Source: Candidatus Latescibacterota bacterium
GTDB lineage: Bacteria; Latescibacterota; UBA2968; GCA-2709665
DNA: 64,000 bases
Direction of reading: 5' to 3'
NCBI GenBank assembly: GCA_963667175.2
Contig: CAXXXF010000015.1
Location: 1 to 64,000, forward strand
Part shown: one piece after another, positions 40,830 to 54,603 of the stretch
Numbering within the stretch: position 1 is the first letter of the stretch
Layout of the letters: every line of letters starts with the position of its first letter
The notes under the pieces: model-generated
The model's input: only the letters and a program-made list of their open reading frames with translations
What the model was told of the DNA's origin: nothing
The model's database searches: none
Translations under genes and position numbers: made by a program

Positions 40830-40832
40830 GCC

Positions 40833-41564: not shown

Positions 41565-41583
41565 CCCTGAGCTTGTCGAAGGG
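41565..41583. repeat. Short REP-like palindrome
   Basis: CCCTGAGCTTGTCGAAGGG, intergenic. Confidence 0.5.
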
Positions 41584-41742: not shown

Positions 41743-42024
41743 ATGCGCTGGCCCGAGATATGCAAAGACCGTCCCGATAAGTGGCTGATTGTTGAGGCAT
41801 TAGAAGCCCATACAACCTCTGATTGTCGGCGGCATCTGAATCGTCTGACAGTGGTTGAAGAATGCCCGGATGGCAAAACAGCTATGAAACGGAATCAGAC
41901 CCTTCACCATCAATATCCCGAACGGGAATATTATTATCTCCATACCAGTCGTGATTCACTTGATATTCAAGTAAGACAATCGTCGGGTATTCGTGCGCTG
42001 TATGCAACTGGTACGCAGGTATGA
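41743..42024 (+). CDS. Small hypothetical protein (partner upstream of an aspartyl protease gene)
   Basis: MRWPEI...PDKWLIVEALEAH...YYYLHT; AGGA RBS; AT-richer than host. Confidence 0.75.
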   Translation: MRWPEICKDRPDKWLIVEALEAHTTSDCRRHLNRLTVVEECPDGKTAMKRNQTLHHQYPEREYYYLHTSRDSLDIQVRQSSGIRALYATGTQV

Positions 42025-42163
42025 TCTGCCATTTACATCGGTGTCTATTGACTATCGGGGATCAACTATTGAGATCCCTCAAGTCCTGGTCGATACCGGA
42101 TCAGCCAGCACGGTAATATCCTCCGATCCTGACGGGCGGCACGCATTTCGACGAGTTCGATGA
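42002..42163 (+). pseudogene. Truncated retropepsin-like (clan AA) aspartyl protease
   Basis: Manual translation MQLVRRYDLPFTSVSIDYRGSTIEIPQVLVDTGSASTVISSD..., stop after 53 aa. Confidence 0.75.
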
Positions 42164-42271
42164 ACGCGGTCCGACGGACTGAAAAATCCCCCTTGAACGG
42201 GAGCGAACGCCTGTTTCCTCTTGACAGTTTAAGTGCCGATTGGGATATTTGTCGCCCCATGAATCAATGAC

Positions 42272-42358
<87 letters not shown>

Positions 42359-42368
42359 GAACCAAAGA

Positions 42369-42394
42369 AAGGCACCTGCGAAAGCGGGTGCCTT
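42369..42394 (+). terminator. Hairpin terminator after tRNA-Leu
   Basis: AAGGCACCTGC-GAAA-GCGGGTGCCTT. Confidence 0.75.
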
Positions 42395-42548
42395 GTTCTT
42401 CTCCAATAAGAATTATGACTAAGTGTAACTCAATCTCAACCGAATTCGGCTATGCGCCTTGCCACGTTGCTTCCATTAGCTCAAATGTCCCAAAAACTAC
42501 GTTAACGATATCCGATCTGTCACTAATATTCGAAGGAGTAATAACAAA

Positions 42549-43649
42549 ATGGCAAAACACACAGTCTATATTGATGAAAGTGGGAATACTGGTGCCAATT
42601 TCCTGGATGAAACTCAGCCCATTCTTGTTTTACTTGGAGTGGGAATTCCCCACGAATCAATGTCAGATATCCTATTGAGACTTGATGAGGCAAAAAGGAA
42701 GTTCGGCTATTCTGTAGATCATCCGTTACACGCGAGGAATATCGCCCAGCGAACCAGAGAGCGTCTTTGCCAGAAAGTATTGAATTTGTTGATGGAGTAC
42801 GAATTCAACCTGTTTGTGTCCGTTTCAGAAAAGGAATATGTCTTGGCTACGATAATCTATGATTATTTTTTTGATCCGGCGTACAATGATCATTGCGATG
42901 TGACATGGACCCACCCATCACACATGAAACCTGAACGAGCTGATTTTATATACAATTGTCTTTCTGACGATGCCTGGCGAGTCTGTGGTCAAGCGTTTCG
43001 AAATGGCGACAAGATGCAACAGGCGTACGAGTTGGTTCTTAATGACATCAAGAACAAGACTTGCGATATTGACCTTTACCCAATCCTTCAAGGAGCGAAA
43101 GCCCATATCGACGAATTGGCAACGGCGTTTGCGTCTTCCTCTAAAGCTGATCCTAGCGGCCGTTTGCCGACTGGTGTCCGCAATTCTCCCAATATTCTCG
43201 GATTTTGTGGACTTACGAACAAGATTGAACAGTACTACGGTAAACTCGGACAGGAAGTAACAATTATGTTTGATCATTCAAGACAGTATACGGTTGCATT
43301 CCTTGATATGTTCTCGCGGTTACGGGACGCCAAGAACGCCAAACTGAAGATGAAGGGAACGCTGCCATTACAATTGGGATATAATGCACTAAAGCGATTT
43401 GATGCAGACAAATCCAAGAAAAATAGCTTCTTGCAGTTGTCCGATTTGGTGGCTACATCAGTGATGGACTGCCTATTAAAAGCACACAAGGGTGTTTCCC
43501 TGTCTGTAGATGAGGCATGTCTGTTATACCTAATTGTGGATTACTGGGGAAAATTCGAGGAGACCTTCTGCGATTTTTCGGTCTCTACGCGTTTTCTGAG
43601 ACAGGTCGGAGACGCAATTGGGTCTGCCTCAGATGTGACGACGAGATAG
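42549..43649 (+). CDS. DUF3800 domain protein (RNase H-like fold)
   Basis: YIDESGNTG N-terminal motif, IMFD, LQLSDLVA; AAGGAG RBS. Confidence 0.85.
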   Translation: MAKHTVYIDESGNTGANFLDETQPILVLLGVGIPHESMSDILLRLDEAKRKFGYSVDHPLHARNIAQRTRERLCQKVLNLLMEYEFNLFVSVSEKEYVLATIIYDYFFDPAYNDHCDVTWTHPSHMKPERADFIYNCLSDDAWRVCGQAFRNGDKMQQAYELVLNDIKNKTCDIDLYPILQGAKAHIDELATAFASSSKADPSGRLPTGVRNSPNILGFCGLTNKIEQYYGKLGQEVTIMFDHSRQYTVAFLDMFSRLRDAKNAKLKMKGTLPLQLGYNALKRFDADKSKKNSFLQLSDLVATSVMDCLLKAHKGVSLSVDEACLLYLIVDYWGKFEETFCDFSVSTRFLRQVGDAIGSASDVTTR

Positions 43650-43752
43650 CATACGAACAGAATCTTTGACGTTGAAGTGTCCTTCGTTTTGTGTGCTTGT
43701 ACCCACGTGTTTTATTAACCTTTCCTCACAGATAATTGTTAAGGGTATTGAA

Positions 43753-44217
43753 ATGAGTGATCTTGAAGAATTCCCAGGCATTAAGTACGCATATCCATTA
43801 GCGGTGGAGAGCTATACAATAATGCAACAGCGATTTGATGCCGTTAATGGGTTGCTGCAACAATCTCTAACAACCATAATATCCTTAAATCTAGGTGTTG
43901 TGGCATTGTTACGAATTTTCCCAGATAAGGAAGCCACTTGCCTCTTTATGATTGCTGTTGGTCTTGGTTGTGCTGCGGCGATAACAGCAATTGCTGGAAG
44001 ATTATGGTTAAGGATTTCTGCACTTGATCCAAAACTTGTGTGGGAACATGCATTGAGGAAGGATGAATTCGAATTTAAGAAAGACCTGATTTTTGGTGCC
44101 GGGGAATCATTTGCGAAAAATAGACGGCGAGTAGCACAGAAACAAGGGTGTTCGGCTATTGCCCTAATTCTTATGTTTGTGGAGGTTGTGATTATTGGCG
44201 TTTGGATGATTCAGTAG
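43753..44217 (+). CDS. Hypothetical 3-TM membrane protein
   Basis: Three hydrophobic segments; N......K motif before the last TM. Confidence 0.75.
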   Translation: MSDLEEFPGIKYAYPLAVESYTIMQQRFDAVNGLLQQSLTTIISLNLGVVALLRIFPDKEATCLFMIAVGLGCAAAITAIAGRLWLRISALDPKLVWEHALRKDEFEFKKDLIFGAGESFAKNRRRVAQKQGCSAIALILMFVEVVIIGVWMIQ

Positions 44218-44374
44218 CCTCTTCCCTATTAATAGGCTCAATTATGGTTGTCGTGTCGTAGTTCTTATCATCATAGGTTTCTGTATGAATTGGTGGCGTT
44301 ACTGGTGGTTCCGGAGTTGTTTGGGCCTGCTGGTCGGTTGAACTGTCCTTAGGGTCATTTCCGTTTTTGGGCAT
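44192..44374 (-). CDS. Small acidic Pro/Thr-rich peptide (60 aa)
   Basis: AAGGAG RBS before ATG 44374; MPKNGNDPKDSST...PEPPVTPP. Confidence 0.5.
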   Translation of the reverse strand: MPKNGNDPKDSSTDQQAQTTPEPPVTPPIHTETYDDKNYDTTTIIEPINREEATESSKRQ

Positions 44375-44594
44375 TTTATGCTCCTTTCGTCCTTGAAGAG
44401 TATTATGGTTAGTGTCGGAAGAATTCAACCCTCTGAGAGGAGTCGTGCGAGATATCGACAGCGTTGTCACCTAACCTATCTTCGGGTAAGGTCCGGCTAA
44501 TCACGGAACGGATTTTTGAAGGCGCGTGCAAGGTTGTCCATTGTAGGGCCATTGGGTGTGGTTTTCTATACGTCAATCGGTTAGTTCCGGTTCG

Positions 44595-46073
44595 CTACGT
44601 TTGTGTCAGGACGGCTTCCATAATATCCTTAGCAGTGCGCGGGGATGGCGAGACCGCTACCAAAGTCCGGAAGACCCTACGGTATATCGCAGCTTCGTCG
44701 GTGGAAATACTACTCAACGGCGTGCAGCTTTGTCCAGCTTGAAAGTTCTCCAACTTCCTCCCAACGGCTTCGAGTTGTTCGAAGGTGATTTCCAAACGGC
44801 CATTCATTGAGAGCATCTGGTTTCGGAGTTCGGCGAATTGGCTCAATGAACTTACTACCAATGCGCTGGCATCTTCAGGAGCCAGATATCCAGATACGGC
44901 CAATTCATATGTCTCCTCCAATTGACACAGCACGGAATAAAGCTTGCGGTTATTGTTCCGTGTCGTGGATGCCTTTCGACATCGTGCAGATGTTCTGCGA
45001 AAGACGGCACCAAGATGGTTTTCGAGATTTCTGATGTGGGGACCGGGTTCGAAGTAATCGCGACGCCCATTTGGCACGATGCGAGAATCTAGAACGTGTA
45101 TTTCCCCAATGCACCAACGGTTAAACCGCTCCTCGGGAAAAAGGTGTTCAAATGCGGACTCATCGCCGACCTGTATATTTCCCACACGCGCTCGGATTCC
45201 TCTGATTCCTGTTTCCTTCGGTATTGCTCCTAGGTATGAGGAATGCCCGATCCATCCTATTGCGGCAATTCCGTTCCCATCGGCAGACGGGATATAGATC
45301 TCTTCGAAATCGGTAAAGGTGTCCTCTCGCTCTTTTGACAACCGGATCGTGTCACCATATCGTCGTGTTATGGATGATTCTTCATCGTCCAGCACAATAT
45401 CAAGCGTTAATGGCGATGTGTCTTGTTCAAACAGAGTGATGACTCTTGAAGCATATGGAAACTTGGTCGAAATCGGAACGGGACAAATGTCTGCGATGTA
45501 ATCTCGAACAGCGACACGGTTTAGAATTCTCGACGCGGCATGCCGTCCTACGCCGCAAATCCTAACTTCGAAAAAGTTAGCAGGATAATCAGACCCTGGA
45601 AGAGTTTCAATTTCGACGCACTCGTGAATCACACGATCGTTTTCGCAGTGTTGACGTACTCGTTCTCGAAGCTTTGTACCATCCCAGACAACGCGGGTAA
45701 CGGGGTCACCGTGCCGAGTACGCGTAAAAAATGAAACAGAGTCAGCAAACGCGAGACCGGATAGACGTCCGATACCGCGAAAGCCCCTGTCTGTCCCTTG
45801 TCGCTTCTGGCTACGAGCGACCGGAAGTAACGCTCGGACCGCCGCTTCTTTAGATAGACCCGGACCATTGTCGGTAATACTGACGCTCGAGCTCGACGGG
45901 TCGATCTTGATTCTTACCTGACCTAGAGAGCCATTGCCCACCGTCGAGAGTGCATCCGCTGCGTTCTGGATGTATTCGCGGTAAACGGCAAGCGGATTAT
46001 CGTACATCCCAGAAGTAATGAGACCCCAAATATCGCCGCCGATAAATGGTGCAAATCCTTCTTTATCTTTCAT
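44595..46073 (-). CDS. GHKL (MORC/Hsp90/MutL-like) ATPase
   Basis: YREYIQNAAD, DNGPG and GFRGIG Bergerat-fold motifs; S5-like region GEIHV...PNGRRDYF; C-terminal coiled coil. Confidence 0.88.
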   Translation of the reverse strand: MKDKEGFAPFIGGDIWGLITSGMYDNPLAVYREYIQNAADALSTVGNGSLGQVRIKIDPSSSSVSITDNGPGLSKEAAVRALLPVARSQKRQGTDRGFRGIGRLSGLAFADSVSFFTRTRHGDPVTRVVWDGTKLRERVRQHCENDRVIHECVEIETLPGSDYPANFFEVRICGVGRHAASRILNRVAVRDYIADICPVPISTKFPYASRVITLFEQDTSPLTLDIVLDDEESSITRRYGDTIRLSKEREDTFTDFEEIYIPSADGNGIAAIGWIGHSSYLGAIPKETGIRGIRARVGNIQVGDESAFEHLFPEERFNRWCIGEIHVLDSRIVPNGRRDYFEPGPHIRNLENHLGAVFRRTSARCRKASTTRNNNRKLYSVLCQLEETYELAVSGYLAPEDASALVVSSLSQFAELRNQMLSMNGRLEITFEQLEAVGRKLENFQAGQSCTPLSSISTDEAAIYRRVFRTLVAVSPSPRTAKDIMEAVLTQT

Positions 46074-46095
46074 TTCTCTTTCCACAATGTGAGAC

Positions 46096-47739
46096 TTAGT
46101 TTGTGAGCTTAGATGATCCCTTACTTTCTCTACGTAGCGAGTACTCGTGGTCGAAGAGCCCCGCATCCTCGACGACCTCATCTTCTTTAGGCATTGCAAA
46201 TCTTGTGCCGGATTCGGGAAACAAATCTAACGCTTGACTGTGTCTGACATCCGGCTTGTCTTTTGTGTCCAGCAGGTGAAACTGCATGACTTCTCGAATA
46301 AGCCTGTCCACGCTTCTGTCGTTCCCAAGCATTCGATAATGTTCTCGTCGTAAACCCGTCCCTTGTGCTGGCTCCGAAAGATGATTAATCAGTTCTCGGT
46401 TTTGACTCTCTGATAATCGCTTACGTAGCGACATATACTCATCGAGTTCTGCTCGACCGTCGCCATTTTCGTAGTGGTCACGATAGAAGATAAACGCATG
46501 TGGAAGGCTCAGCAGCCTTTCAAATGCCCCCTCGTCCTCCCCATAAGCCCGTACAAAGAAGGAAGGGTTGCCACTAACTATTCCGTGAGTCGCTTGAAGC
46601 ATAATCTGGAATGAACGAAGATAGTACCTGTACCAGTTTTTCCCTACATGTGAACGATCCTTCAACGTGACTGGTTGATACCGCATTGGGAATGACCAGA
46701 TTCGAACCCCCAACTCCTCGTTCAGTGCTATGTTCAGACGCATACGTTTATACAAGTCTCGGGGGGTATCCATGAAGTTGTAGAGCATGTAATTGGACAA
46801 CGAGGTAATTCCGTTTTCTGCCGCCATTCGGACCGCGATTTCATATACCTTGCGGACGCCCATATGGTCGAACGCGATGCGAAGAGGACTGATACATATT
46901 GTCGCCATCTCCCGCAGAAACATTGGCGACTTTGCCAGTATTCGAGCATCAACACCTTGGTTGAAATCGACACGGCGATTGACTGGGCGTTGACCATCTC
47001 GGTGAAGTTTTGCGCCAGGCTTGAAACCAAGGTCACGGATTTCAGCGATCACTTCCTTGTAACGCCACGAAGCGGTGATGTTGTTGTCCATCAATACAAG
47101 GTCTTTTTTCGGTCCATACATGGTTTCAACACCATCAACGAGTTTCGCAAGTGGTGGCATTTCTTTTTGTCCACCCTCAAGTTTGGGGACTCCACAGAAG
47201 GCGCACTTCCGCACGCAGCCCCGCGAGGCGTACCCAAAATAAGCGTCACGCACCGGATAGCGGTAATCGATATGTTCGAGGATGCTGTAGTCCGGGACCA
47301 ATTCCTCTATCGGCGTACTTCGCAGGTCATCCGCGCCAAAGTCGCCATCGTCTTCAGACAACGCGAGCGCTGCAGCTGGAGGTCCGCCCAGTAATCCTTT
47401 GATAAATCGAACACCTGCCCAACGCGGTTCGTTCACGAACTCGTCGTACATTAAGGAGGCCGCAATTCCTCCTACGAACACACGCTCGGGTTGGTTGCCG
47501 GCTGCTTGAATGGCAAAATCAATCGCTGCCGCTGTACGTTTCCACTCGAAACTAAAAAGCGTTGTTACATAAACTCGGTCCCACGGTTCAAGCAAGACAT
47601 CGTTCGCTTTACCCTTGATAAAACGCACCCTGTCACCACGCCCCTGGTGGCCGTGGTAGGATGCCAGCTTCATCAAACCGAGGGGTGGGTACTTGTTAGG
47701 ATAACCTGGTTCGATTAGTAGCACGTTTTTTCGAGTCAT
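46096..47739 (-). CDS. Radical SAM protein with N-terminal cobalamin-binding-like domain
   Basis: RGCVRKCAFC (CX3CX2C); N-terminal YPPLGLMKLA...VFVGG; MDNN, DFNQG. Confidence 0.9.
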   Translation of the reverse strand: MTRKNVLLIEPGYPNKYPPLGLMKLASYHGHQGRGDRVRFIKGKANDVLLEPWDRVYVTTLFSFEWKRTAAAIDFAIQAAGNQPERVFVGGIAASLMYDEFVNEPRWAGVRFIKGLLGGPPAAALALSEDDGDFGADDLRSTPIEELVPDYSILEHIDYRYPVRDAYFGYASRGCVRKCAFCGVPKLEGGQKEMPPLAKLVDGVETMYGPKKDLVLMDNNITASWRYKEVIAEIRDLGFKPGAKLHRDGQRPVNRRVDFNQGVDARILAKSPMFLREMATICISPLRIAFDHMGVRKVYEIAVRMAAENGITSLSNYMLYNFMDTPRDLYKRMRLNIALNEELGVRIWSFPMRYQPVTLKDRSHVGKNWYRYYLRSFQIMLQATHGIVSGNPSFFVRAYGEDEGAFERLLSLPHAFIFYRDHYENGDGRAELDEYMSLRKRLSESQNRELINHLSEPAQGTGLRREHYRMLGNDRSVDRLIREVMQFHLLDTKDKPDVRHSQALDLFPESGTRFAMPKEDEVVEDAGLFDHEYSLRRESKGSSKLTN

Positions 47740-48746
47740 TTTGTGCCAAATACCTCAATCATCTTGTTGATTCTTCTCATTTGTTGTGATAATCTGCGGA
47801 CGGCTTGTCTAAACGCGTTGAAATTACTCTGATCCAACTGTGAGACCTCCTTCCGAGACACATCATCCAGCAGTACCCAGGCTTGCCTTACATTTTCTTC
47901 CACCTTACTAATCTTTGCGAGTTGAAATCCTTCATCTAGTTCGATTTTTCCATCGGAAAACTTCTTCAGGACTTTTGGCTTTTTAAGAATCACAGGTAGT
48001 TTCTTCCTAAGGTCTTGTGCAGTGAACTTGTGTTCCTCGACCTCACTTTCCATGTTCTTTATCTTCCCAAAGAGAACTTCGGTGAGTTTGTCTGATTTCT
48101 CCATTTCCTTTAGAACTGACGTGTTACGTACCAAGACATCGTAGTAACTAAAATGGGACCGATCGTTATCCTCGTTGTGCTTCATCATTTCAACTACTTT
48201 GACCCTTGTACGTATTGTGACGCTAGATTCGCCAAACAATTCTGCGACTTTGTCGACACTCCATCCTTGATCTTTGCGCACGTAAGCAAAATTGGCCTTT
48301 TCATAAGCAGACCACTGTGTCTTTCCCTTTACGTGAATTTGATTCAAAAATGCTGCCTGCTGGTCGTCTGTTAGACCCGTTACTACGTTGCATTGAATCC
48401 GCTCCCAGTCCCCCGGCTCACCTTGTTGATGTAACTTTCGATAAACCGCCAATCTTGAATTGCCCTCAATTACCTCCATCGTGTCTCTTCGAATTAAGAT
48501 TGGCTCGATAAGGCCGCCGTGGCGCACAATCTCTGGAACCAGTTTCCTCACGCTCGGTTCCTCAAGCAATTTCTTATAGATCAGATCTTGTTTCTCTTCC
48601 TCGATTAACTGGGCGAAATCAGGTTCCGAGTGCATACAGGCATAAACTCTAGGATTATCCTTGAGAAATTTAAGTTTGTAGATGTCTTCATCGCCGTTAG
48701 CAAGATAGATGGATTCACCCAAAATTCTCATTTCGTTATTTGCCAT
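47736..48746 (-). CDS. ParB/Srx-like N-terminal domain protein (copy 2)
   Basis: NPR, GGLIEPILI, VIEGNSRL, H..G...WSAYEKA. Confidence 0.85.
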   Translation of the reverse strand: MANNEMRILGESIYLANGDEDIYKLKFLKDNPRVYACMHSEPDFAQLIEEEKQDLIYKKLLEEPSVRKLVPEIVRHGGLIEPILIRRDTMEVIEGNSRLAVYRKLHQQGEPGDWERIQCNVVTGLTDDQQAAFLNQIHVKGKTQWSAYEKANFAYVRKDQGWSVDKVAELFGESSVTIRTRVKVVEMMKHNEDNDRSHFSYYDVLVRNTSVLKEMEKSDKLTEVLFGKIKNMESEVEEHKFTAQDLRKKLPVILKKPKVLKKFSDGKIELDEGFQLAKISKVEENVRQAWVLLDDVSRKEVSQLDQSNFNAFRQAVRRLSQQMRRINKMIEVFGTK

Positions 48747-48771
48747 GTCGTGTCAACCCTTCCGATGGCGA

Positions 48772-50238
48772 CTACGCAGCGCTTACGGGGACGAGTAGCT
48801 CTGTCAATGTACCCTTCAGATCATGAGCGAAAACTGTATCGAACTCTTCGCGTGATACGTCACCTTGTGTTAACTGTGCCGCCTGATACTTTGCATTCAA
48901 CAGCATGTCGACCCACTCATCGATAGTGTTTCTAGCGATAAGGTTATGGACGAAACAATCTTCCGTTTGAGAAATCCGGTGGATGCGATCTTGTGCTTGT
49001 AGGTAGTCATCAAGACTGAATCCACGGTCATAGAATATCGCGTGATTTGCAACAGTCAATGTTAACCCTTCTTTTGCCGACCCGGGTGTAGCCAACAATA
49101 CCCTGCAGTTTGAGTTTGTCTTGAACCGTCTAATCGACTCGTTTCGATCATCCACGGACATATGGCCGTGGACTTTGCGTGGCATAAGATAATCTAGTTC
49201 GCGGCTTAACCATTCGACGTTTTTGATAAATCCTGTCCAAATAATCGCTTTGTTTGACCGAATATCGATTTCGTCAATCAACTCAGCCAACTTTGCCTGT
49301 TTTGCTGAGATTTCATCATAGGTCTCATCCACCAAGGTTGGATTTGAGGCACACTGCACCAAACGCAACAAGCGTTTCAGAATGTCTTCGGCATCATCTA
49401 ACGACAAGTCGTTTTCGGTTTGCATCTCGTAGCTCAGCGCATCTCTGTAAGACGCGTAGATTTCAGATTGACGAGGTGCGAGTTCGACCGAATGAGTAAG
49501 GATCGTCTTTTCGGGAAGCTCAATTCCTGCTGTCCGCTTCGTATCGCGTATCGAAAAACTCTTGATCTTCTCCATAACATTGGATAACCGGCTGCCATAC
49601 TCTGATGCGCAACGAGACTGCGACGGTAGGTCCAGCGCATCTTTGAACTCAGCGTACGAAGCCCCCAATGTTGTACCGCCATCGAGGAACTTTATCTGTG
49701 ACCAGATATCAAACGGGCGATTCGCGACAGGAGTTCCTGTCATGATTACACGTCGCGCAAAACAGTCGAAAATTGAATGGAAACTCGCCGAAATCCTTGA
49801 CTCTGGATTCTTAATCTTTTGGCTTTCGTCCAAAATCGCGGCTGCTCGGCACGTTGCCAGAAATTCCCCCAAGAGGTCGAGATTTGCTGAGACGACTTCG
49901 TAGTTCATTATGTAGATGAGAACCGGTGAATTTAGCGCAATGCTGTTATGGCGACGATTACCCGAAAGAACTCTAGGTGTGACAAATGAATGAGATACCA
50001 ACTCATCAAACCAATTTTGAACTAACGACTTCTTTGTTATAACGAACGTTGTATCAACTATGTCTTCACTTAGCCAATGCAACATTAGATCGATGGCAAT
50101 TTTGGTCTTTCCGAGCCCCTGCTCATGGAAAATTGCGGCATACGGTAAGGATTTGATGGACCTTACGGCATCAAGTTGATAAGGATAGGCGTCGTGTTTG
50201 GCGCTCAGTCGTGGGGGTTTTCTCAGCTTAAACGCCAT
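48772..50238 (-). CDS. SNF2-family helicase/translocase
   Basis: EQGLGKT, DESQ, TGTP, EGLTLT, QAQDRIHRISQ. Confidence 0.92.
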   Translation of the reverse strand: MAFKLRKPPRLSAKHDAYPYQLDAVRSIKSLPYAAIFHEQGLGKTKIAIDLMLHWLSEDIVDTTFVITKKSLVQNWFDELVSHSFVTPRVLSGNRRHNSIALNSPVLIYIMNYEVVSANLDLLGEFLATCRAAAILDESQKIKNPESRISASFHSIFDCFARRVIMTGTPVANRPFDIWSQIKFLDGGTTLGASYAEFKDALDLPSQSRCASEYGSRLSNVMEKIKSFSIRDTKRTAGIELPEKTILTHSVELAPRQSEIYASYRDALSYEMQTENDLSLDDAEDILKRLLRLVQCASNPTLVDETYDEISAKQAKLAELIDEIDIRSNKAIIWTGFIKNVEWLSRELDYLMPRKVHGHMSVDDRNESIRRFKTNSNCRVLLATPGSAKEGLTLTVANHAIFYDRGFSLDDYLQAQDRIHRISQTEDCFVHNLIARNTIDEWVDMLLNAKYQAAQLTQGDVSREEFDTVFAHDLKGTLTELLVPVSAA

Positions 50239-50666
50239 GTTGGGTGCCCAATTGGGTCAAGTCTCCAGAAGTCACATCCGTCATGGACTTCAATCTGTGT
50301 CTTGCTCGCTTGTATGCGGGTTCGCGTGAATCGTAATATTGACTTGGCAAGGTCGGCCCTGCAGCCCGTCACCGAAAGTACGAATAATCCGAAACTCTTC
50401 CGTTCTAGATAAGTGATAAAGGTCTCTATCTGGTTGTACGTGTGAGTCCTTTCAACGTCCTTATCGGTCTTAGCTTCAGCTATAACAGCCGAATTTTCGA
50501 CCGTGTTAATTGCATACAAATCTGGTCGGTATCGGTCGATTAACGGAGGAATTGGCTCGCCAGGACTTTCTTGTAAGTCGGCGATTATCGAGAATTCAGG
50601 ATAACGAGACTCAAGTGCCTTAGCTACTTGGGTCACGAGGTCTCTGTGGGTATCACTCTGAGACAT
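50223..50666 (-). CDS. Small PD-(D/E)XK nuclease-fold protein
   Basis: H...V, RPDL and AEAKT motif spacing; overlaps both neighbours. Confidence 0.75.
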   Translation of the reverse strand: MSQSDTHRDLVTQVAKALESRYPEFSIIADLQESPGEPIPPLIDRYRPDLYAINTVENSAVIAEAKTDKDVERTHTYNQIETFITYLERKSFGLFVLSVTGCRADLAKSILRFTRTRIQASKTQIEVHDGCDFWRLDPIGHPTWRLS

Positions 50667-51687
50667 CTTGAAGTAGATTGTGCAAGCTATCAGACAGGTC
50701 TTCAAGGGACTGGATTTGGTCAGATACCTCATCGCTTTCTTTGCTTTTTAGCGTGCGCACCTCGGAATACGGCAAATCATTGATACGTCGTGCTAGAATT
50801 GCAGAAAGTTGATATATAGAAATCGTGTCCAACTTCGTGTCATCGGCCGTTTCGGTTCGCTCTCGTTGTGTCTTCTTGTCTAGTATTGCTATTGCCTCCT
50901 CAATTGAGCGGGGGCCTCCATTTAGGAATTCATCCTTTGCCTCATCGTCGCGAAGTACACGTGGCAACTGCCGAACGTCGGCCAAGCGGTAGATCTTACC
51001 GTCGCGAATCCATTCGCCAAAATGCCTTAAATCCAATCCAGCATCAAATATGGCTTCTTTAATCTTTGGTTTCTGAAGTTCAACAAAACCACTAAACCTG
51101 TCAATATGGAAAGCCGTGTCATCCACTATATCCCGATAATACTCATTCATGTCCTGATAAGCGTCAATTTGACGCTCAATTTCAGTCTTATTTCCGCCGC
51201 ATAAAGCCACCATTTCATTGTAGTCCATGAATTCTTGGTTGCGCAGATAATGTAGATATCTTGCCTTCTCGTACGCTGGCCATTCCCTAGCACCTACCAA
51301 GTGTGCTGACACACGGATCATTTCGACATCGCGTTCGTTTACATCCTCAATGATAATTGCCTTAATGCTGGACCACGACCCTTTCATCCCCTCTCTCAAG
51401 AACTGTTTGTAGATCGCAAGTCGAGTGTTTCCATCGATACAGACATACCCGTCTTTCCCATGTATAACTGTGACCGGAGCCATTACACCTCCGCTGGCTC
51501 GAATCGCATCCCTTAGCTGGGTATATGACGAAGACCCGCTTTCGCCGTCTGTCGCCGACCTCAAAGCAAAGTGAATACGTTCAGCATTCAGCTGGTCCCC
51601 GTACTTTTCCAACGCCTTCTTGATTCGTGGGTTTTCTGTGTCGAACGAAATATCATCGACCTTTAGCCTGGTATAATTGTCTGTCAT
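50653..51687 (-). CDS. ParB/Srx-like N-terminal domain protein (copy 1)
   Basis: ENPRI, GGVMAPVTV, CIDGNTRL, H..G...WPAYEKA. Confidence 0.85.
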   Translation of the reverse strand: MTDNYTRLKVDDISFDTENPRIKKALEKYGDQLNAERIHFALRSATDGESGSSSYTQLRDAIRASGGVMAPVTVIHGKDGYVCIDGNTRLAIYKQFLREGMKGSWSSIKAIIIEDVNERDVEMIRVSAHLVGAREWPAYEKARYLHYLRNQEFMDYNEMVALCGGNKTEIERQIDAYQDMNEYYRDIVDDTAFHIDRFSGFVELQKPKIKEAIFDAGLDLRHFGEWIRDGKIYRLADVRQLPRVLRDDEAKDEFLNGGPRSIEEAIAILDKKTQRERTETADDTKLDTISIYQLSAILARRINDLPYSEVRTLKSKESDEVSDQIQSLEDLSDSLHNLLQDVSE

Positions 51688-51829
51688 TTTGTCCCCATTT
51701 ATAGAAAAAATCGATCAGTGCGCCGCCAATAATCACGCCCCACGACTCGAGCGATAATCCTTTGAGATGGATCGTGAGGGATTGGGGTCCTTGATTTGCG
51801 GCGTCAGTTTTGCATTTTCTCTCGCAAAA

Positions 51830-51857
51830 AGTATAAGCATCTTTCACACAATGTCAA
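51830..51857 (-). promoter_or_regulatory. Near-consensus sigma70 promoter for the six-gene operon
   Basis: Minus strand TTGACA-16 nt-TATACT. Confidence 0.7.
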
Positions 51858-52102
51858 CAATGGAGCGGACCTTGCAAGTGCACTTGTCAATTATTCCTGA
51901 ACCCCCAGAAGTCAACTCGAATAAGTTTTTCGAATTGAGCCTGCTGAGGTCTTCTAGAGAGTTATACAAGTGGATTCAGGCAGCCAGTTTACCCTCCATG
52001 TGGGTCGGGGTTTCGACGAGACTTTCCGACCCGCCTGCCTGACCCGCGGAACAAGCGAGTTCGTATACACCGTGGGCATGCGGTGAAATTCAGCGGATTC
52101 CC

Positions 52103-53254
52103 TCACGGCCACAGCGTATCGGCGGCAAGCAGGTTGGAAAAGTGTGAAAACGGGAGGACCTCGATACCGTCAGCGGTCCGCAATTCAGGCCCGTCGGGAT
52201 AAACGACAAGCCTGCGGCAAAGTCCCGGCAGCTCGGTCAGAACCCTTAGTCCCTTGCACCAGGATTCCGCGAACGCGCCGCCGGATTTGACTTCGATTGC
52301 CACGAATTCCCCGCCGCGCTTGAGCAGGAAGTCCACCTCGGTACCGGTCTGCGCCGCGGTCGACCAATAGAAGCACTCGTCGCAGACATGACGGTAGTCT
52401 GTATACGCCCGGATCAACTGGGCAATCAGGCCTTCGAATAGAGCGCCGCGCTCCTCCGGGGCGGGAGGCGTCGTGACCCGTTTCATCGCCCGTACGAGAC
52501 CGGGGTCGCACCAATACCACTTTGGCATTTTGCGTTCGCGCACGCGCAATCGGGTCTCGTATGCAGGAAGTTGAAAGCAGAGGAGTGTTTCTTCCAGGAT
52601 CTGCAGGTATCCCGTCACTGTCGTGCGCGCAACCTGAGCTTCTCTTGCGATGTTGGTCGCGTTGAAGGTCTGGCCGTGAAAGAGCGCCGCAACCGGGAGA
52701 AAGCGCGCGAATCCGGGAAGGTTCCGCACAAGTGCCTCTGCTTGTATCTCCTCTTTGAGATACATCTGCGTATAGGCAACCAGTGTCTCCGCCCTGTCAT
52801 CCGAATCCCATACGATGGGCAGCAGTCCATGTTGCAAGGCGTCGTCGAGCGCGAACCGTTCTCCCAACTCCTCGGGAGTAAAGGGATGCATCGCGCGATT
52901 CAGGGCGCGGCCCGCAAGGAGGTTGACACCTGCCCTTTTGAGTTTTCTTGCACTGGACCCGCACAATACAAAGCGCATTCGCTTTTCTTCGATAAACCGG
53001 TGTACCTCGTTAAGCAACGTCGGCAATCTCTGCATCTCGTCCAGAACCACCCACCGGTCATCCGGCACGGCGCGCAGCTCCGCGGCAAGGAGACCCGGAT
53101 TCGCAAGCAGGCGCTGGTACGTATCCTCGGCGAGCAGATTCACGACGTGCGCATCCGGAAATGCCGATCGCAGACAGGTGCTCTTTCCAACGCCGCGAGG
53201 TCCCAGGAGAAAGAAGCTCTTCCGGGGGGCGTCAAATATGCGTGGAATTGTCAT
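52103..53254 (-). CDS. AAA_14 ATPase with DUF4143 C-terminal domain
   Basis: GPRGVGKST, LDEMQ, GSS, LAGR, DPGL, EVDF, IEVK. Confidence 0.92.
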   Translation of the reverse strand: MTIPRIFDAPRKSFFLLGPRGVGKSTCLRSAFPDAHVVNLLAEDTYQRLLANPGLLAAELRAVPDDRWVVLDEMQRLPTLLNEVHRFIEEKRMRFVLCGSSARKLKRAGVNLLAGRALNRAMHPFTPEELGERFALDDALQHGLLPIVWDSDDRAETLVAYTQMYLKEEIQAEALVRNLPGFARFLPVAALFHGQTFNATNIAREAQVARTTVTGYLQILEETLLCFQLPAYETRLRVRERKMPKWYWCDPGLVRAMKRVTTPPAPEERGALFEGLIAQLIRAYTDYRHVCDECFYWSTAAQTGTEVDFLLKRGGEFVAIEVKSGGAFAESWCKGLRVLTELPGLCRRLVVYPDGPELRTADGIEVLPFSHFSNLLAADTLWP

Positions 53255-53685
53255 TTGACTATGTTGTCGTCATTTTTCGCAGTAATTTGACGATAATATA
53301 GTCAAATTTCAAGAATCTGTCAAATCAGGACTTGACCTGCCCCAACGCCGTCTTGCCGGGTATGATCGCTTGATTCTAAAGGCGATTTCGGAAACTTGAA
53401 ACCTCTCCGCCCGGAGCGCGTCTAAGCGGATACAACCATGCTACATCCCTCCCGAAAGGCGTCGATCGTACCCAGTACGGCCGGCGCCTTTTCTGAGTGT
53501 ATCGACGAGGTGTCTGTCTGTGGAATCATCGCGATGGCTGGCGGCGATTTCATTCAAACGCGGGGAAAGTCCTGTTGCGCGCCCTTGCCGGCGCTCGTAT
53601 TTTATGCCTGTTCGAAGTGAGGGTTCCCGGCCTTTGGCAAGGGACGGACCGCGCTTTTCCAGAGGAATCAGTTGGGGAGAACCTT

Positions 53686-54603
53686 ATGCGCAGGATTGTG
53701 CTTCGGCAGGTCACGAAGACGTTCGACGGCGTACGGGCCGTGGACGGATTGGATCTCGACGTCGAGGCGGGCGAGGTATACGGTCTGCTGGGGCCCAACG
53801 GCGCCGGAAAGACCACCACGATTCGCACGGTCCTGGGGATTTACGCGCCGGATTCAGGGAGGATCGATTGTGACAACGGGGGAACGGGACTGTCGAAGGA
53901 CCGGGTAGGCTATCTGCCGGAAGAACGAGGGCTGTATCCCAAGATGCGGGTGATGGACCTGCTGGTATTCCTGGGGGAGATCAAGTCGCTCTCGCGCCCG
54001 GAAGCCGCGGGCCGCGCGGGAGAATGGCTGGAACGGATGGGCCTGTCGGAGTGGTCGAACCGGCGCGTGGATCAGCTTTCCAAGGGCATGCAGCAAAAGC
54101 TGCAATTCATCGCGACCATCATCCACGACCCGGACCTCCTGATTCTGGACGAGCCGTTCAGCGGCCTCGATCCGATCAATGTGGCCGTCCTGAAGGAGAT
54201 TATGCAGACCTTGACGAACGAAGGCAAGATTCTCATTTTTTCCACCCATCAAATGGAGGATGCAGAGGCGCTTTGCGACCGGATCTGCCTGATCAACCGC
54301 GGTCGTAAGGTGCTGGAAGGCACCGTACCCGAACTGAAGGCCCTTTACAAAAGAAACAGGCTGCGCATCGCTTTTGAGGGCAATGACGATTTTCTCGAGG
54401 ATACGAAGCTGGTCCGGCGTGCGGACCGTCGCGCGAATCACGTGGAGGTCGAACTCCAGACGGGCGCAGATCCCGGCGACCTGCTGAGACGGGCGCTATC
54501 CGGGGCCCGGATCCACCGGTTCGAAGTCTCGGAGCCGTCCCTCCGGGATATCTTTTTGATGGCTGTGGGCGGCGAAGATGCCGGGGAGAGCCGGAATGAA
54601 TAA
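53686..54603 (+). CDS. ABC-2 transporter ATP-binding protein (NatA/YhaQ-like)
   Basis: GPNGAGKTT, LSKGMQQK, LDEPFSGLD. Confidence 0.93.
   Translation: MRRIVLRQVTKTFDGVRAVDGLDLDVEAGEVYGLLGPNGAGKTTTIRTVLGIYAPDSGRIDCDNGGTGLSKDRVGYLPEERGLYPKMRVMDLLVFLGEIKSLSRPEAAGRAGEWLERMGLSEWSNRRVDQLSKGMQQKLQFIATIIHDPDLLILDEPFSGLDPINVAVLKEIMQTLTNEGKILIFSTHQMEDAEALCDRICLINRGRKVLEGTVPELKALYKRNRLRIAFEGNDDFLEDTKLVRRADRRANHVEVELQTGADPGDLLRRALSGARIHRFEVSEPSLRDIFLMAVGGEDAGESRNE

Follow-up and report, generated by a model that had tools for sequence, protein, structure and literature searches.

Several described systems share single features with the locus analysed here. The phosphorothioate systems (DndABCDE with DndFGH; SspABCD with SspE or SspFGH; PbeABCD) contain a constant enzymatic unit and varying nuclease/ATPase units, a pattern of constant modification unit and varying restriction units, together with a ParB-fold member (DndB, the N-domain of SspE). 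Systems linked to DNA modification (Dnd, Dpd, Ssp, GmrSD) repeatedly contain domains of the ParB/DndB/DGQHR type. Dpd contains the ParB-like DpdB and the SNF2-type DpdE, and its pathway is supplied by radical SAM chemistry (QueE). In DISARM and Zorya an SNF2 motor is paired with a nuclease, and ZorD is an SNF2 helicase fused to an Mrr-like nuclease. The prokaryotic viperins (pVips) are antiviral radical SAM enzymes, single-domain and usually standalone, whereas the class B radical SAM enzymes (TsrM, MgmA, TokK, CysS, OxsB) and the B12-domain dehydratase AprD4 have a two-domain architecture with a CX3CX2C cluster site. GHKL ATPases occur within multi-gene defence-like operons as MORC-type proteins, as MzaB of Mza and in Tiamat. 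HerA-type ATPases are described as serving in phosphorothioate restriction modules, and Dnd modification genes as commonly decoupled or orphan, in the text of PMC10853773.

The window, a stretch of 64,000 nucleotides from Candidatus Latescibacterota bacterium (contig CAXXXF010000015.1), was found to contain six intact, co-oriented minus-strand ORFs at 44595-51687, downstream of a single near-consensus promoter (Table 1). The starts of genes 2 and 6 were shifted inward on the basis of homologue alignments, to 50666 for gene 2 and to the ATG at 46073 for gene 6, 5 nt past the Shine-Dalgarno-like stretch GGAAAGAG. Genes 1 and 2 were found to overlap by 14 nt (50653-50666) and genes 2 and 3 by 16 nt (50223-50238), followed by a gap of 25 nt between genes 3 and 4, an overlap of 4 nt (47736-47739) between genes 4 and 5, and a gap of 22 nt between gene 5 and the revised start of gene 6. 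These ORFs and junctions agree with the first-pass annotation, which had described six co-oriented genes with overlaps or gaps of at most 25 bp. The promoter named there was recovered with 11 of 12 consensus matches (51857-51830) as the top-scoring of 11 sites within 44000-52200, and is a consensus match only, because this site total equals the shuffle level (shuffle mean 9.5). The six domain calls likewise held (two paralogous ParB-like proteins, PD-(D/E)xK nuclease, SNF2, B12-domain radical SAM enzyme and GHKL ATPase), and the catalytic motifs were complete in all six of the window's own proteins.

Table 1. Features of the operon and of the surrounding insertion in the window.
Feature	Position	Strand	Details
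Gene 1, ParB-like protein 1	50653-51687	-	344 aa
Gene 2, small PD-(D/E)xK-type nuclease candidate	50223-50666	-	147 aa; ORF extends to 50732
Gene 3, SNF2-family helicase core	48772-50238	-	488 aa
Gene 4, ParB-like protein 2	47736-48746	-	336 aa
Gene 5, radical SAM enzyme	46096-47739	-	547 aa
Gene 6, HSP90-like GHKL ATPase	44595-46073	-	492 aa; ORF extends to 46199
Sigma-70-like promoter candidate	51830-51857	-	TTGACA, 16 nt, TATACT; 143 nt upstream of gene 1
Low-GC insertion, 9.7 kb	about 42394-52096		carries the operon and two unrelated plus-strand genes; GC profile, empty sites
tRNA-Leu(CAA)	42272-42358	+	ARAGORN; left edge of insertion
DUF3800 gene	42549-43649	+	inside insertion
183-aa ORF	43666-44217	+	inside insertion; without family match

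The ParB-like proteins of genes 1 and 4 were found to be paralogues (hhalign probability 99.9, E 4e-32). Gene 1 contained invariant NPR and (D/E)GNTR motifs in the homologue alignment and gave no Pfam match at E<=10; its profile (18 homologues) matched H. pylori ParB 4umk (E 0.0039, about 110 residues aligned). Gene 1 also matched TIGR03764 ParB at E 0.048, and its nearest ESM Atlas clusters carried PF02195 ParB_N (59% of a 2357-member cluster, score 0.98). Gene 4 contained invariant NPR and EGNSR motifs (15 homologues), together with a possible HTH near residues 155-182 with weak HTH_DeoR and Sigma70_r4 matches (E 0.06-0.12), and by itself gave no ParB match in the PDB. The nuclease candidate of gene 2 contained P48-D49, E64 and K66, invariant in 18 of 18 aligned homologues, in the layout (R)PD...(13-17 residues)...ExK, with a weak match to the Pfam AHJR-like REase (E 0.049). 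Gene 3 exceeded the gathering scores of Pfam SNF2-rel_dom (2.2e-27) and Helicase_C (7.7e-16) and carried the GLGKT, DESQ and QAQDRIHR motifs.

The radical SAM enzyme of gene 5 was found to begin with a B12-binding-like Rossmann domain (about residues 1-137); the radical SAM barrel comes next, and then a helical C-terminal part. The three cysteines of the CX3CX2C cluster site (C175, C179, C182) were conserved without exception in alignments of 21 and of 34 sequences, and a conserved VEDAGL motif was present in the tail at 523-528. The protein attained the cut-off of none of the curated families, and against Pfam Radical_SAM it scored 19.9 bits, under the cut-off of 29.5, which its relatives P0127 and P0129 exceed. 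In the AF2 model (pLDDT 87.4) the fold resembled TsrM (Foldseek 1.9e-10), with further matches to MgmA, MiaB, AprD4, OxsB, TokK and CysS; the whole-length VIA Z scores were 17.3 for AprD4, 16.4 for MgmA, 16.1 for TsrM and 14-14.5 for OxsB, CysS and TokK, and the N-domain, taken alone, gave Z 9.7 with the B12-binding domain of AerR and Z 8.8 with that of MetH. Methylation chemistry is not implied by this fold, because AprD4, the top structural match, is a cobalamin-independent dehydratase.

The GHKL ATPase of gene 6 contained intact ExxxNxxDA, DxGxG and RGFRGxGRL motifs, together with a middle domain and an extended helical C-terminal part. The first-pass annotation had placed it with the MORC-type ATPases. 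That assignment was not demonstrable, and the protein is HSP90-like by sequence and by fold: it exceeded the Pfam HATPase_c_3 cut-off (2.4e-8), its profile (20 homologues) matched HtpG at 2.8e-12, and its AF2 model (pLDDT 82.4) matched GRP94 (3.7e-15), TRAP1, HSP90 and SMCHD1 (1.9e-12). Neither the radical SAM enzyme nor the GHKL ATPase showed a recognisable DNA-specificity domain (TRD or similar).

The operon lies in a true insertion. The GC content was found to be 0.44-0.51 over 42001-52000, versus 0.58-0.66 in the flanks, which together with the adjoining tRNA-Leu(CAA) and the empty sites bears out an earlier description as an AT-richer tRNA-Leu island. In two of the five same-genus genomes compared (G008 and G014) the insertion was missing and the tRNA-Leu flank and the right-hand gene (52103-53254) were 74 bp apart, versus 9.7 kb in the window, whereas other inserts of about 3.4 kb (G009), 2.8 kb (G001) and 1.1 kb (G007) occupied the same site. 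A direct repeat of the tRNA-Leu 3' end was looked for at the right edge of the insertion and was not found. The two plus-strand genes of the island do not accompany the cassette, with weak matches in none (183-aa ORF) and one (DUF3800) of 79 related genome loci.

These 79 loci show that the cassette is made of two units, a hub of the radical SAM and GHKL genes plus a nuclease/translocase module drawn from a set of at least four interchangeable ones, and not the one indivisible six-gene system that had been proposed. The hub was found on one strand in 77 of the 79 loci. The ParB-nuclease-SNF2-ParB module was present in 44, so that these contain all six gene types, and 30 of the 44 contained exactly the contiguous gene order of the window. 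In other loci the ParB module was replaced or joined by a NurA-HerA-GHKL module (14 loci), a DndB-HEPN module (11) or a GHKL gene with an unknown protein (10). The HerA of the NurA-HerA module matched PDB 7f6d at E 7e-34 and its partner was a NurA-like protein; the partner of HEPN was DndB/DpdB-like (DndB 7.4e-11, DpdB 3e-18), and another partner set contained DndB (Pfam DndB 5.9e-17), a metallo-beta-lactamase-fold protein and an SMC-like ATPase. The same partners recurred beside radical SAM enzymes just 36-63% identical to the query P0129. The conservation of gene order is far beyond chance, and the check for conserved synteny was positive in the genome loci, in metagenome loci and on IMG/VR contigs. 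The 80 metagenome loci, many of them on short contigs, contained GHKL in 45, ParB2 in 26, PDxK in 22 and ParB1 in 21, and the 45 IMG/VR contigs contained GHKL in 21, NurA-HerA in 9 and the ParB module in 8.

At least one nuclease/translocase module adjoins the hub in 72 of the 79 loci. The other seven, without a full module, were cut by a contig end, broken or decayed: the radical SAM-GHKL pair was kept in L036, L057, L066 and L068, a truncated radical SAM gene with GHKL in L076, and the radical SAM gene alone in L064 and L075 (truncated in L075). No locus among the 79 was found to have an intact hub and uncut flanks and zero module genes, L057 keeping one ParB-like gene. In the distant relatives L094, L100, L105 and L106 the ParB module was present without any GHKL gene, and L104 was cut at a contig end.

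The cassette was found to be patchily spread across phyla, the record titles of the 79 loci naming at least 11. In 168 genomes of the phylum, the radical SAM gene was present in 7 and the ParB-like gene in 4, every one with the radical SAM gene adjoining (4/4), whereas GHKL was present in 7, six with the radical SAM gene and the seventh a fragment with a stop codon. Within the genus the cassette was found in 1 of 14 other genomes, as the DndB-HEPN variant with a radical SAM enzyme 58% identical. The radical SAM enzyme was the most conserved cassette protein, with 54-76% identity across phylum labels versus 29-62% for GHKL and 27-58% for the nuclease. Along its tree (73 labelled rows) the modules have switched repeatedly, with 16 changes needed for ParB-nuclease-SNF2-ParB (B), 6 for NurA-HerA-GHKL (N), 9 for DndB-HEPN (D) and 4 for GHKL with the unknown protein (M), and near-identical radical SAM enzymes were found with different modules, e.g. 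L044 (D) and L032 (B). The phylum labels needed 23 changes, versus a minimum of 10. A neighbourhood check suggested earlier gave conserved synteny but did not demonstrate defence-island enrichment, because the nearest flanking genes in other genomes were mostly ordinary housekeeping genes: among 133 ORFs scanned out of the 143 nearest flanking ORFs, a few matched defence families, namely PDC-S01 three times and LmuB, GajA, GajB, DRT, MTase_I, REase_II and MkoB once each.

The first-pass annotation had found neither a known modification enzyme in the cassette nor a named system to which it belongs, and both statements stand. No DNA methyltransferase, PAPS reductase or TGT was found among the nine island proteins. 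PADLOC-DB 2.0.0 gave no full match on the island, nor did the named systems compared; it gave helicase-level matches for SNF2 (ZorD 4e-51, DpdE 1e-35, DrmD 2e-18, confined to the helicase parts), weak matches for GHKL (REase_II 4.7e-6 and TmtA), and nothing for the radical SAM enzyme, the nuclease or the second ParB-like protein. The phosphorothioate systems resemble the cassette in the constant and varying units and in the DndB-like and HerA partners of other loci, but the island contains no DndA, DndC, DndD, DndE or SspABCD homologue, and the enzyme at its centre belongs to the radical SAM proteins proper and carries a B12-like domain. Dpd resembles the cassette in gene 3 and in the DpdB-like partner of HEPN, whereas DpdA (TGT), DpdC and the preQ0 pathway genes are absent here, and by best fold matches the radical SAM enzyme is unrelated to QueE-type enzymes. 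Genes 2 and 3, which overlap, resemble a nuclease-SNF2 pair that has been split, but no DrmA, DrmB, DrmC, DrmMI, DrmMII, ZorA, ZorB or ZorC is present. A barrel fold is common to the radical SAM enzyme and the pVips, but the former adds the B12-binding-like domain and helical C-terminus and is set among DNA enzymes. Its identity to the class B enzymes and AprD4 is 11-17%, in a context of DNA enzymes and not of biosynthesis, and its binding of cobalamin is putative. The other Mza genes are absent, although an extra 620-aa GHKL paralogue of other loci matches MzaB (4.8e-7) and REase_II models. The sole find of the literature searches was one line of a 2026 preprint (bioRxiv 10.64898/2026.10.19.760177, section 32), in which the three-gene neighbourhood 'PAACC + HSP90 + Radical SAM' is given in a cyclase-like effector context. 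Judged from the preprint text alone, this is probably the same hub, with an HSP90-type ATPase and a radical SAM enzyme co-encoded in a presumed immune context; in that text the hub is not presented as a system, and the ParB-nuclease-SNF2-ParB, NurA-HerA and DndB-HEPN modules and the spread are absent.

The operon is tentatively read as one version of a modular system that is widespread and moves horizontally, and that would act on DNA and defend against phages and plasmids. The radical SAM enzyme, aided or gated by the GHKL ATPase, would make a radical-based chemical change on host DNA that marks it as self; with cobalamin as cofactor this could, for instance, be a C-methylation. The two ParB-like proteins, as NTP switches, would load on DNA and read its state, followed by translocation by the SNF2 motor and cutting by the small nuclease of DNA without the mark. 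Among the parts of this reading, action on DNA is quite probable and a role in defence is probable, whereas the writing of a self mark by the radical SAM enzyme is possible at somewhat less than an even chance. The full chain, taken together, is a working proposal of similarly limited probability.

The GHKL ATPase may only help the radical SAM enzyme to fold or to take up its cofactors, as a dedicated chaperone or activase with no role on DNA; this is rather unlikely, and would be compatible with any system-level model. Its HSP90-like character and its position directly after the radical SAM gene in nearly all loci favour such a role, as does the tail motif, which was found in 104 radical SAM enzymes with a downstream GHKL gene and in one without it (L064, once five ORF-calling artefacts were corrected), and was missing in 32 without and 20 with the gene, counts that come from related sequences and hence are not an independent-sample statistic. 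Against it, extra GHKL paralogues were found in the NurA-HerA and GHKL-plus-unknown modules, apart from the radical SAM gene, and the chromatin GHKL protein SMCHD1 matches the fold equally well.

The roles may also be distributed otherwise, with the ParB/SNF2/nuclease module or its alternatives detecting invading DNA, the HSP90-like ATPase as an NTP-driven switch and the radical SAM enzyme as the effector, which would damage DNA or RNA or, viperin-like, turn a nucleotide into a chain terminator or deplete it, so that replication is blocked or infection is abortive. The mutual dependence of hub and modules in the 79 loci and the 168 phylum genomes is consistent with this unlikely arrangement, and so are the barrel common to viperin-like enzymes (Z 8.9) and, in L105, an NT5C 5'-nucleotidase-domain gene after the radical SAM gene, which points to nucleotides rather than DNA. 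HSP90-like NTPases are also described as immune-system switches, and HSP90 with radical SAM is set beside a presumed effector, in the text of bioRxiv 10.64898/2026.10.19.760177. The radical SAM enzyme, however, evolves slowest of all the cassette genes, its fold is much nearer to the B12-domain enzymes (Z 14-17) than to viperin, and PADLOC, a list of known defence families, gave no match to it. Effectors in arms races tend to vary, and here the variable parts already resemble effectors because nucleases sit in them.

Nucleotide-signalling defence systems are likewise built from a conserved enzyme and exchangeable nuclease modules, and the radical SAM enzyme could make a modified nucleotide whose binding to the NTP-binding ParB-like or GHKL domains in the modules would switch the nucleases on. 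CTP is both the ligand of the switch formed by ParB N-terminal domains and the target of viperins, and a ParB/DndB-like or GHKL domain was found in most modules. This reading is improbable: no known signal-sensing domain (SAVED, CARF etc.) was found in any module examined, and nothing hints how infection would trigger the enzyme; the scheme as a whole is pure conjecture. A role outside defence, as a DNA-repair or maintenance kit of mobile elements in which HerA-NurA, SNF2, nuclease and GHKL ATPase would process DNA and the radical SAM enzyme would reverse or process a lesion like spore photoproduct lyase, is very improbable. Repair roles are known for HerA-NurA, MutL-type GHKL ATPases, SNF2 motors and a radical SAM lyase, and spore photoproduct lyase is among the weak fold matches (Foldseek E 2e-3), but this match is far weaker than those to B12-domain enzymes, and the patchy spread (7 of 168 phylum genomes, 1 of 14 other genus genomes), the frequent exchange of modules, HEPN nucleases included, and the location in a low-GC insertion and on IMG/VR contigs argue against it. 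That the radical SAM enzyme tailors a peptide (RiPP) or natural product beside coincidental DNA-related neighbours is scarcely credible: B12-domain radical SAM enzymes often do so and the best folds (TsrM, TokK, CysS, OxsB, AprD4) are of that kind, but no precursor-peptide, protease, transporter or biosynthetic gene accompanies it in the 79 loci, in 72 of which it sits among DNA enzymes, and the intergenic gaps of at most 25 bp leave no room for a precursor-peptide gene inside the operon.

The data are compatible with the modification-based system proposed above, and also with effector or signalling models. Classical modification enzymes are often orphan. Dnd modification genes often are as well (PMC10853773). 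The hub, unlike these, is almost never alone, and since hub and modules appear to be mutually dependent, an integrated machine or a sensor-effector design fits at least as well. The cassette around this unusual radical SAM enzyme is unnamed, and most probably represents a novel type of phage and plasmid defence.

The six genes were found to form a conserved, mobile and intact cassette, in which a hub of a radical SAM enzyme (rSAM, gene 5) and a GHKL ATPase (gene 6) was combined with interchangeable DNA nuclease/translocase modules, and this hub-and-module structure together with its wide spread is the main new result. A scan with the rSAM, keeping one genome per species, yielded a close set of 79 loci at 54-76% identity, and their content was assigned by tblastn and ORF clustering. 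The source MAGs were labelled Acidobacteriota, Nitrospirota, Latescibacterota, Binatota, Chloroflexota, Pseudomonadota, Gemmatimonadota, Actinomycetota, Thermodesulfobacteriota, Poribacteria and Spirochaetota. In 77 of the 79 loci the rSAM gene was followed by a co-oriented GHKL gene, the exceptions being L064, which contained the rSAM alone, and L075, which contained a truncated rSAM and no GHKL ORF.

Four partner modules were found beside the hub. Module B, which is that of the window, contained ParB1, nuclease, SNF2 and ParB2 genes and was present in 44 of the 79 loci; it was contiguous and in the window's order in 30 of them, in the same order with an insertion in 2, downstream of the hub in 9, inverted in 2 and rearranged in 1. 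Module N (14 loci) contained a NurA-like protein, HerA (PDB 7f6d, E 7e-34) and a second GHKL protein, module D (11 loci) contained a single protein of 690-780 aa with a DndB/DpdB-like and a Swt1-type HEPN part, and module M (10 loci) contained a 620-aa GHKL protein and a 322-aa protein without an assigned role. Module B also occurred together with another module, with D in 3 loci and with M in 4. The hub with at least one module was present in 72 loci, the other seven being contig-end cuts, broken genes or remnants, and wherever the hub genes were intact and the flanks uncut, at least some module gene was present (L057 retained one ParB-like gene). The conserved synteny expected of the six-gene system proposed in the first-pass annotation was thus found, and because of this synteny across genomes a chance juxtaposition of the six genes was rejected.

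Some further observations were made on these loci. Several of the source MAGs had names linked to marine sponges (Candidatus Poribacteria, Ca. Spongiihabitans and Ca. Poriferihabitaceae), and the more distant rSAM relatives came from many other metagenomes; the close family may circulate within one kind of community. The 620-aa GHKL paralogue, with MzaB- and REase_II-like matches, was always paired with the 322-aa protein (L006:6562-9392, L010:17253-20141 and others), and L025 contained two copies of the pair (6745-9500 and 13201-16131). The ESM Atlas clusters nearest to the 322-aa protein carried PF28273 (PP_RS20740) or Methyltransf_35, a likeness of language-model features only, and its search against PDB profiles gave nothing usable.

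The family was found to extend well beyond the close set. Among 8000 candidates examined, 7122 clusters at 90% identity matched the rSAM at E<=0.001, and at the level of 50%-identity representatives 1630 clusters matched at E<=0.001 and 260 below 1e-30. The listed relatives carried no informative names, P0131 alone being named, as 'hypothetical protein', and many genomes would therefore carry an unannotated multi-gene system. A distant set of 80 metagenome loci, many on short contigs, contained rSAMs 36-63% identical to the relative P0129 used as query. A recognisable rSAM ORF was present in 77 of these loci; for the other genes the number of loci was 45 for GHKL, 26 for ParB2, 22 for the nuclease, 21 for ParB1, 8 for the 322-aa protein, 2 for NurA and 1 for HerA. 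Shorter rSAMs of 440-480 aa were accompanied by module B without any GHKL gene in L094, L100, L105 and L106, and L104 ended at a contig end. The partners of GHKL-less distant rSAMs included a protein with an NT5C nucleotidase domain, DndB with a metallo-beta-lactamase-fold protein, and an SMC-like AAA_23 ATPase with a 154-aa protein (loci L105:5886-7190, L119:5678-7971, L097:2149-4649 and L107), and these partners represent additional module types of the hub. Another distant neighbourhood type contained another GHKL protein and a 372-aa protein beside the rSAM. Among 45 IMG/VR contigs, 43 had a recognisable rSAM ORF, 21 had GHKL, 9 had NurA-HerA (often in the order NurA-HerA-GHKL-rSAM) and 8 had module B.

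The occurrence of the cassette was found to be sporadic in the phylum of the window. The rSAM was present in 7 of 168 genomes, the ParB-like gene in 4, always next to the rSAM, and the GHKL gene in 7, of which six also had the rSAM and the seventh had a GHKL fragment interrupted by a stop codon. Of the 14 other genomes of the genus, 1 contained the rSAM. This locus (L208, G002:C50:100500-120400) contained DndB-HEPN, rSAM and GHKL genes and no module B, and the different variant together with the rSAM identity of 58% to that of the window points to an independent acquisition. A quick maximum-likelihood tree was made of 78 rSAMs, 73 of which carried a module label. The changes needed on it were 16 for module B, 6 for N, 9 for D and 4 for M, and the phylum labels needed 23 changes against a minimum of 10; these counts are descriptions and no tests, since the sequences share ancestry and the labels of MAGs may be wrong. 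Close rSAMs with unlike modules were found in L044 (D) and L032 (B), and L027, with module N, lay next to L024 and L073, both with D. From these sequence comparisons, repeated module exchange and cross-phylum transfer are hard to avoid.

The flanks were surveyed through the nearest ORFs to the left and right of the cassette with a length of 200-700 aa, of which 143 were found and 133 scanned. They were heterogeneous and mostly housekeeping genes (dehydrogenases, sulfatases, carbamoyltransferases, Mur ligases), with a few transposases and one integrase, and this heterogeneity indicates that the cassette is self-contained and lands in many places. The matches to defence models among the 133 ORFs were, as raw counts, PDC-S01 three times and LmuB, GajA, GajB, DRT, a type I MTase, a type II REase and MkoB once each, and these counts do not establish an enrichment in defence islands. 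No methyltransferase or other extra gene travelling with the cassette was found in the flank survey.

In the window, alignments of homologues shifted the start of gene 2 inward from 50732 to 50666 and placed the start of gene 6 at ATG 46073, with GGAAAGAG ahead of the ATG, and not at TTG 46199. The successive junctions were then overlaps of 14 and 16 nt, a gap of 25 nt, an overlap of 4 nt and a gap of 22 nt. The first-pass annotation had described overlapping or <=25-bp junctions, one near-consensus promoter, and an island richer in AT than the host beside tRNA-Leu. The junction lengths were as claimed once the two starts had been corrected, and the promoter stood as a consensus match. The count of promoter-like sites in the region was equal to the shuffle expectation, so that the site is a match to the consensus and no proof of a promoter. 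The GC content was 0.44-0.51 over 42001-52000 against 0.58-0.66 around, in agreement with the described island.

Features of the island and its borders in the window
Feature	Position	Strand	Remark
Short repeated element	41543-41618		just left of the tRNA-Leu region
tRNA-Leu(CAA)	42272-42358		left edge of insert
Insert	~42394-52096		9.7 kb
DUF3800 protein (366 aa) and 183-aa ORF without family match	42549-44217	+	inside insert
Six-gene operon	44595-51687	-	six ORFs
Promoter-like site TTGACA-16-TATACT	51857-51830	-	11/12 consensus match, the only strong one
AAA_14/DUF4143 ATPase gene	52103-53254	-	borders island

For the insertion site, the left (39800-42400) and right (52050-55900) flanks were searched in five complete genomes of the same genus. 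The tRNA-Leu flank was found to lie only 74 bp from the AAA_14/DUF4143 gene in G008 and G014, and the window therefore carries an insert, whereas other inserts of ~3.4, ~2.8 and ~1.1 kb occupied the same site in G009, G001 and G007, respectively. The site after tRNA-Leu (42358-42400 / 52050-52100) is thus variable in the genus, empty in two of the five genomes and otherwise filled in three. The family scan of the island proteins found no integrase within the insert, and no direct repeat of the tRNA-Leu 3' end was found at the right edge of the island. The DUF3800 gene and the 183-aa ORF were not found to travel with the operon in other genomes.

Two observations concern the borders of the island. 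The AAA_14/DUF4143 ATPase, which matched the PADLOC candidate PDC-S01 (4.9e-50), was also present at the empty site of the relatives, and similar genes were found near the cassette in seven other loci, adjoining it in L024, L027, L029, L033, L057 and L073 and ~8 kb off in L012; this proximity may be a coincidence, a preferred landing site or the sign of an accessory gene. The repeated element to the left was a sequence of ~35-60 bp with dozens of copies at 86-100% identity in each of the five genomes, and by its sequence looks like a REP-like dispersed repeat.

The domain calls of the first-pass annotation were found to be essentially right, on the evidence of Pfam, profiles, invariant motifs and the folds of genes 5 and 6, and the catalytic motifs were kept in all six window proteins. 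Genes 1 and 4 gave no Pfam match, PF02195 included, even at E<=10, and the ParB model TIGR03764 matched gene 1 at E 0.048 with 13.3 bits, the cut-off being 143.75. The profile of gene 1 matched the ParB of H. pylori (4umk) at E 0.0039 and three further ParB entries only at E 0.28-0.38, and the ESM Atlas clusters nearest to gene 1 carried ParB_N; the profile of gene 4 gave no ParB match and nothing usable in the PDB profile search. The two genes were paralogous (hhalign probability 99.9, E 4e-32), with NPR and (D/E)GN(T/S)R motifs invariant in both families, and both are likely to be ParB-like. A link from ParB to DndB was unsupported, the hhalign comparison of the ParB-like and DndB-HEPN profiles being not significant (probability 0.2-3.4%), with GNTR and GNSR aligned to the DGQHR motif. 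Gene 2 gave a weak match to Pfam AHJR-like (E 0.049) and contained D49, E64 and K66 of the PD...ExK motif, which were invariant in 18 of 18 sequences and make it a candidate PD-(D/E)xK nuclease. Gene 3, with a SNF2-related N-lobe (96.3 bits against 24.9) followed by Helicase_C (58.8 against 23.5) in Pfam, is by its domain matches a SNF2 helicase core.

The rSAM contained C175, C179 and C182 of the 4Fe-4S-binding motif CX3CX2C, which did not vary among 21 close homologues, nor in a wider set of 34 sequences with relatives of 32-43% identity. In Pfam, PF04055 gave 19.9 bits against a gathering cut-off of 29.5; the relatives P0127 (35.1) and P0129 (31.0) passed it and 8 of the 10 scanned remained below. 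The AF2 model (pLDDT 87.4) gave 27 Foldseek matches at E<=0.001, nearly all to rSAM enzymes, which indicates a partial TIM-barrel fold. Over the whole length, the predicted fold matched two-domain B12-type enzymes, namely AprD4 (structural Z score 17.3), MgmA (16.4) and TsrM (16.1), followed by OxsB, MiaB, CysS and TokK at Z 14-14.5. Residues 1-137 of the model aligned to the B12-binding domains of photocobilin (Z 10.1), AerR (9.7) and MetH (8.8), and the Pfam B12-binding model gave 22.1 bits in one rSAM relative, under the cut-off of 32.1. On the predicted structure, gene 5 is a radical SAM enzyme with an N-terminal Rossmann-type, B12-binding-like domain before the barrel. AprD4, a dehydratase, has the same B12-type domain and works without cobalamin, and we know of no sequence motif that decides cobalamin binding or use.

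Two other identities of the rSAM were considered. The NCBIfam models gave only sub-threshold B12-rSAM and MiaB/RimO matches around the cluster motif, and the PDB sequence search did likewise; a methylthiotransferase of the MiaB or RimO type was rejected because no further conserved cysteines that could hold a second cluster were present at the N-terminus. A role in RiPP or natural-product synthesis was also rejected, as there were no companion genes and no space for a precursor.

Gene 6 matched HATPase_c_3 with 34.5 bits against a cut-off of 25, and its family contained the invariant Bergerat-fold motifs E33, N37, D40, D68xGxG and RGFRGxGRL. The profile of 20 homologues matched HtpG at 2.8e-12, and the model (pLDDT 82.4) matched the N-terminal and middle domains of GRP94, TRAP1 and HSP90 in Foldseek at 1e-13 to 4e-15 over ~420-570 columns, followed by SMCHD1 at 1.9e-12; MutL models matched only at E 7.6e-4 to 0.03. 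The first-pass annotation had called this protein MORC-type, which was not supported, as HtpG and HSP90 were the best matches and no MORC entry was present among the matches listed for the profile and fold searches, an absence that does not by itself exclude the MORC family. By its modelled fold, gene 6 is a GHKL ATPase of the HSP90-like branch.

The C-terminus of the rSAM was a poorly modelled or disordered tail with a conserved acidic motif, VEDAGL, at residues 523-528 (46096-46170 in the window). In a survey of 188 rSAM ORFs from three locus sets, 162 had enough downstream sequence or a downstream GHKL gene. The motif was present with a GHKL gene just downstream in 104 rSAMs, and absent in 32 without a downstream GHKL gene and also in 20 with one. 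Six rSAMs with the motif were scored as lacking a downstream GHKL gene, but five of them do have it, so that L064 alone remains. Since the motif was nearly restricted to rSAMs directly followed by a GHKL gene, a contact of the tail with the GHKL protein is suggested, and VEDAGL may be a docking peptide.

The comparison with known systems was made on the nine island proteins with PADLOC-DB 2.0.0, in which no model matched the rSAM, the nuclease or ParB2, and ParB1 matched the candidate model PDC-M38A at 1.2e-6. The cassette differs from DISARM in that gene 3 alone matched the DrmD models, on the helicase C-lobe, and DrmA, DrmB, DrmC and a methyltransferase were absent. It differs from Dpd by the absence of DpdA (TGT-like), DpdB and DpdC, with DpdE-model matches on the SNF2 core only, from Zorya by the absence of ZorA, ZorB and ZorC, gene 3 matching only ZorD models, and from Dnd and Ssp by the absence of DndA, DndC, DndD, DndE and SspABCD. 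The database thus assigned the island to none of DISARM, Dpd, Zorya or Dnd/Ssp, and the reported lack of methyltransferase and TGT genes was reproduced. The full-text literature search found no description of a radical SAM enzyme with GHKL, ParB, SNF2 or HerA-NurA partners, except for one line on an HSP90 and radical SAM neighbourhood in section 32 of a preprint (bioRxiv 10.64898/2026.10.19.760177). The genes of that line likely belong to the present family, and the 322-aa protein may be the extra partner meant there. In the portions of the other sources covered, Table 1 of PMC3710099 lists a ParB-HEPN fusion architecture, the term radical SAM in PMC10853773 is confined to the discussion of DndC, and the passages of PMC7159879 and PMC3226654 are unrelated to the present system. 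The view that the system is an unnamed one therefore stands within the databases and literature searched, with no full match and one preprint line, and the observation as a whole was confirmed in its operon, domains, island and recurrence.

There is good reason to expect that the cassette acts on DNA, and it is probably an anti-mobile-element system. As its mechanism, a modification-based discrimination is tentatively favoured by analogy, at somewhat under an even chance. Host DNA would be marked by the rSAM, with the HSP90-like ATPase as its gate or helper, ParB/DndB-type NTP switches would read the DNA, and SNF2 or HerA motors with PD-(D/E)xK, NurA or HEPN nucleases would attack unmarked DNA. 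ParB, DndB and DGQHR domains are recurrently tied to DNA-modification systems, and phosphorothioate systems have a layout of constant enzyme and variable nuclease; both of these likenesses, together with the rate of evolution of the rSAM, the slowest among the cassette genes, argue for the modification model, which is weakened by the hub having no orphan occurrence, by no DNA-specificity domain being seen and by the top fold match being a dehydratase. The more specific proposal, that the rSAM writes a new radical-derived DNA mark which is read by ParB/DndB-type NTP switches licensing several unrelated nuclease machines, is possible but doubtful; the candidate marks would include a change of the backbone or the C-methylation of a base or sugar at an unactivated carbon.

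The GHKL protein could serve only as a chaperone dedicated to the rSAM, which is rather unlikely and would be compatible with any system-level model. It is unlikely that the rSAM acts as an effector, either like viperin or by damaging DNA, with the GHKL protein as its switch: in contrast to prokaryotic viperin, the rSAM contained an extra B12-like domain and gave no PADLOC viperin match (it matched no PADLOC family at all at E<=0.01), and viperin-like structures aligned to its model only at Z 8.8-8.9 against 14-17 for the B12-domain enzymes. A signalling role is improbable, and an accessory role in repair still more so.

At 7.1 kb the cassette is compact, and as it includes a promoter-like site and its catalytic motifs are all intact, it is directly testable by cloning. 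It is also a clean natural experiment in modularity, in which a single hub is combined with at least four nuclease machines that can replace one another. If the cassette serves in defence, the combination of a B12-domain radical SAM enzyme and an HSP90-like ATPase would be a new immune principle; if the rSAM makes a nucleotide, viperin-like chemistry would be widened, and if it modifies DNA, its product would be a new epigenetic mark and the enzyme itself might serve as a tool. Were the proposed radical-derived mark to prove true, it would be a third enzymatic route of self-marking, beside methyltransferases and the sulfur/deazaguanine pathways, and the cassette would represent a new family of modification-based immunity that has spread horizontally through at least 11 bacterial phyla.
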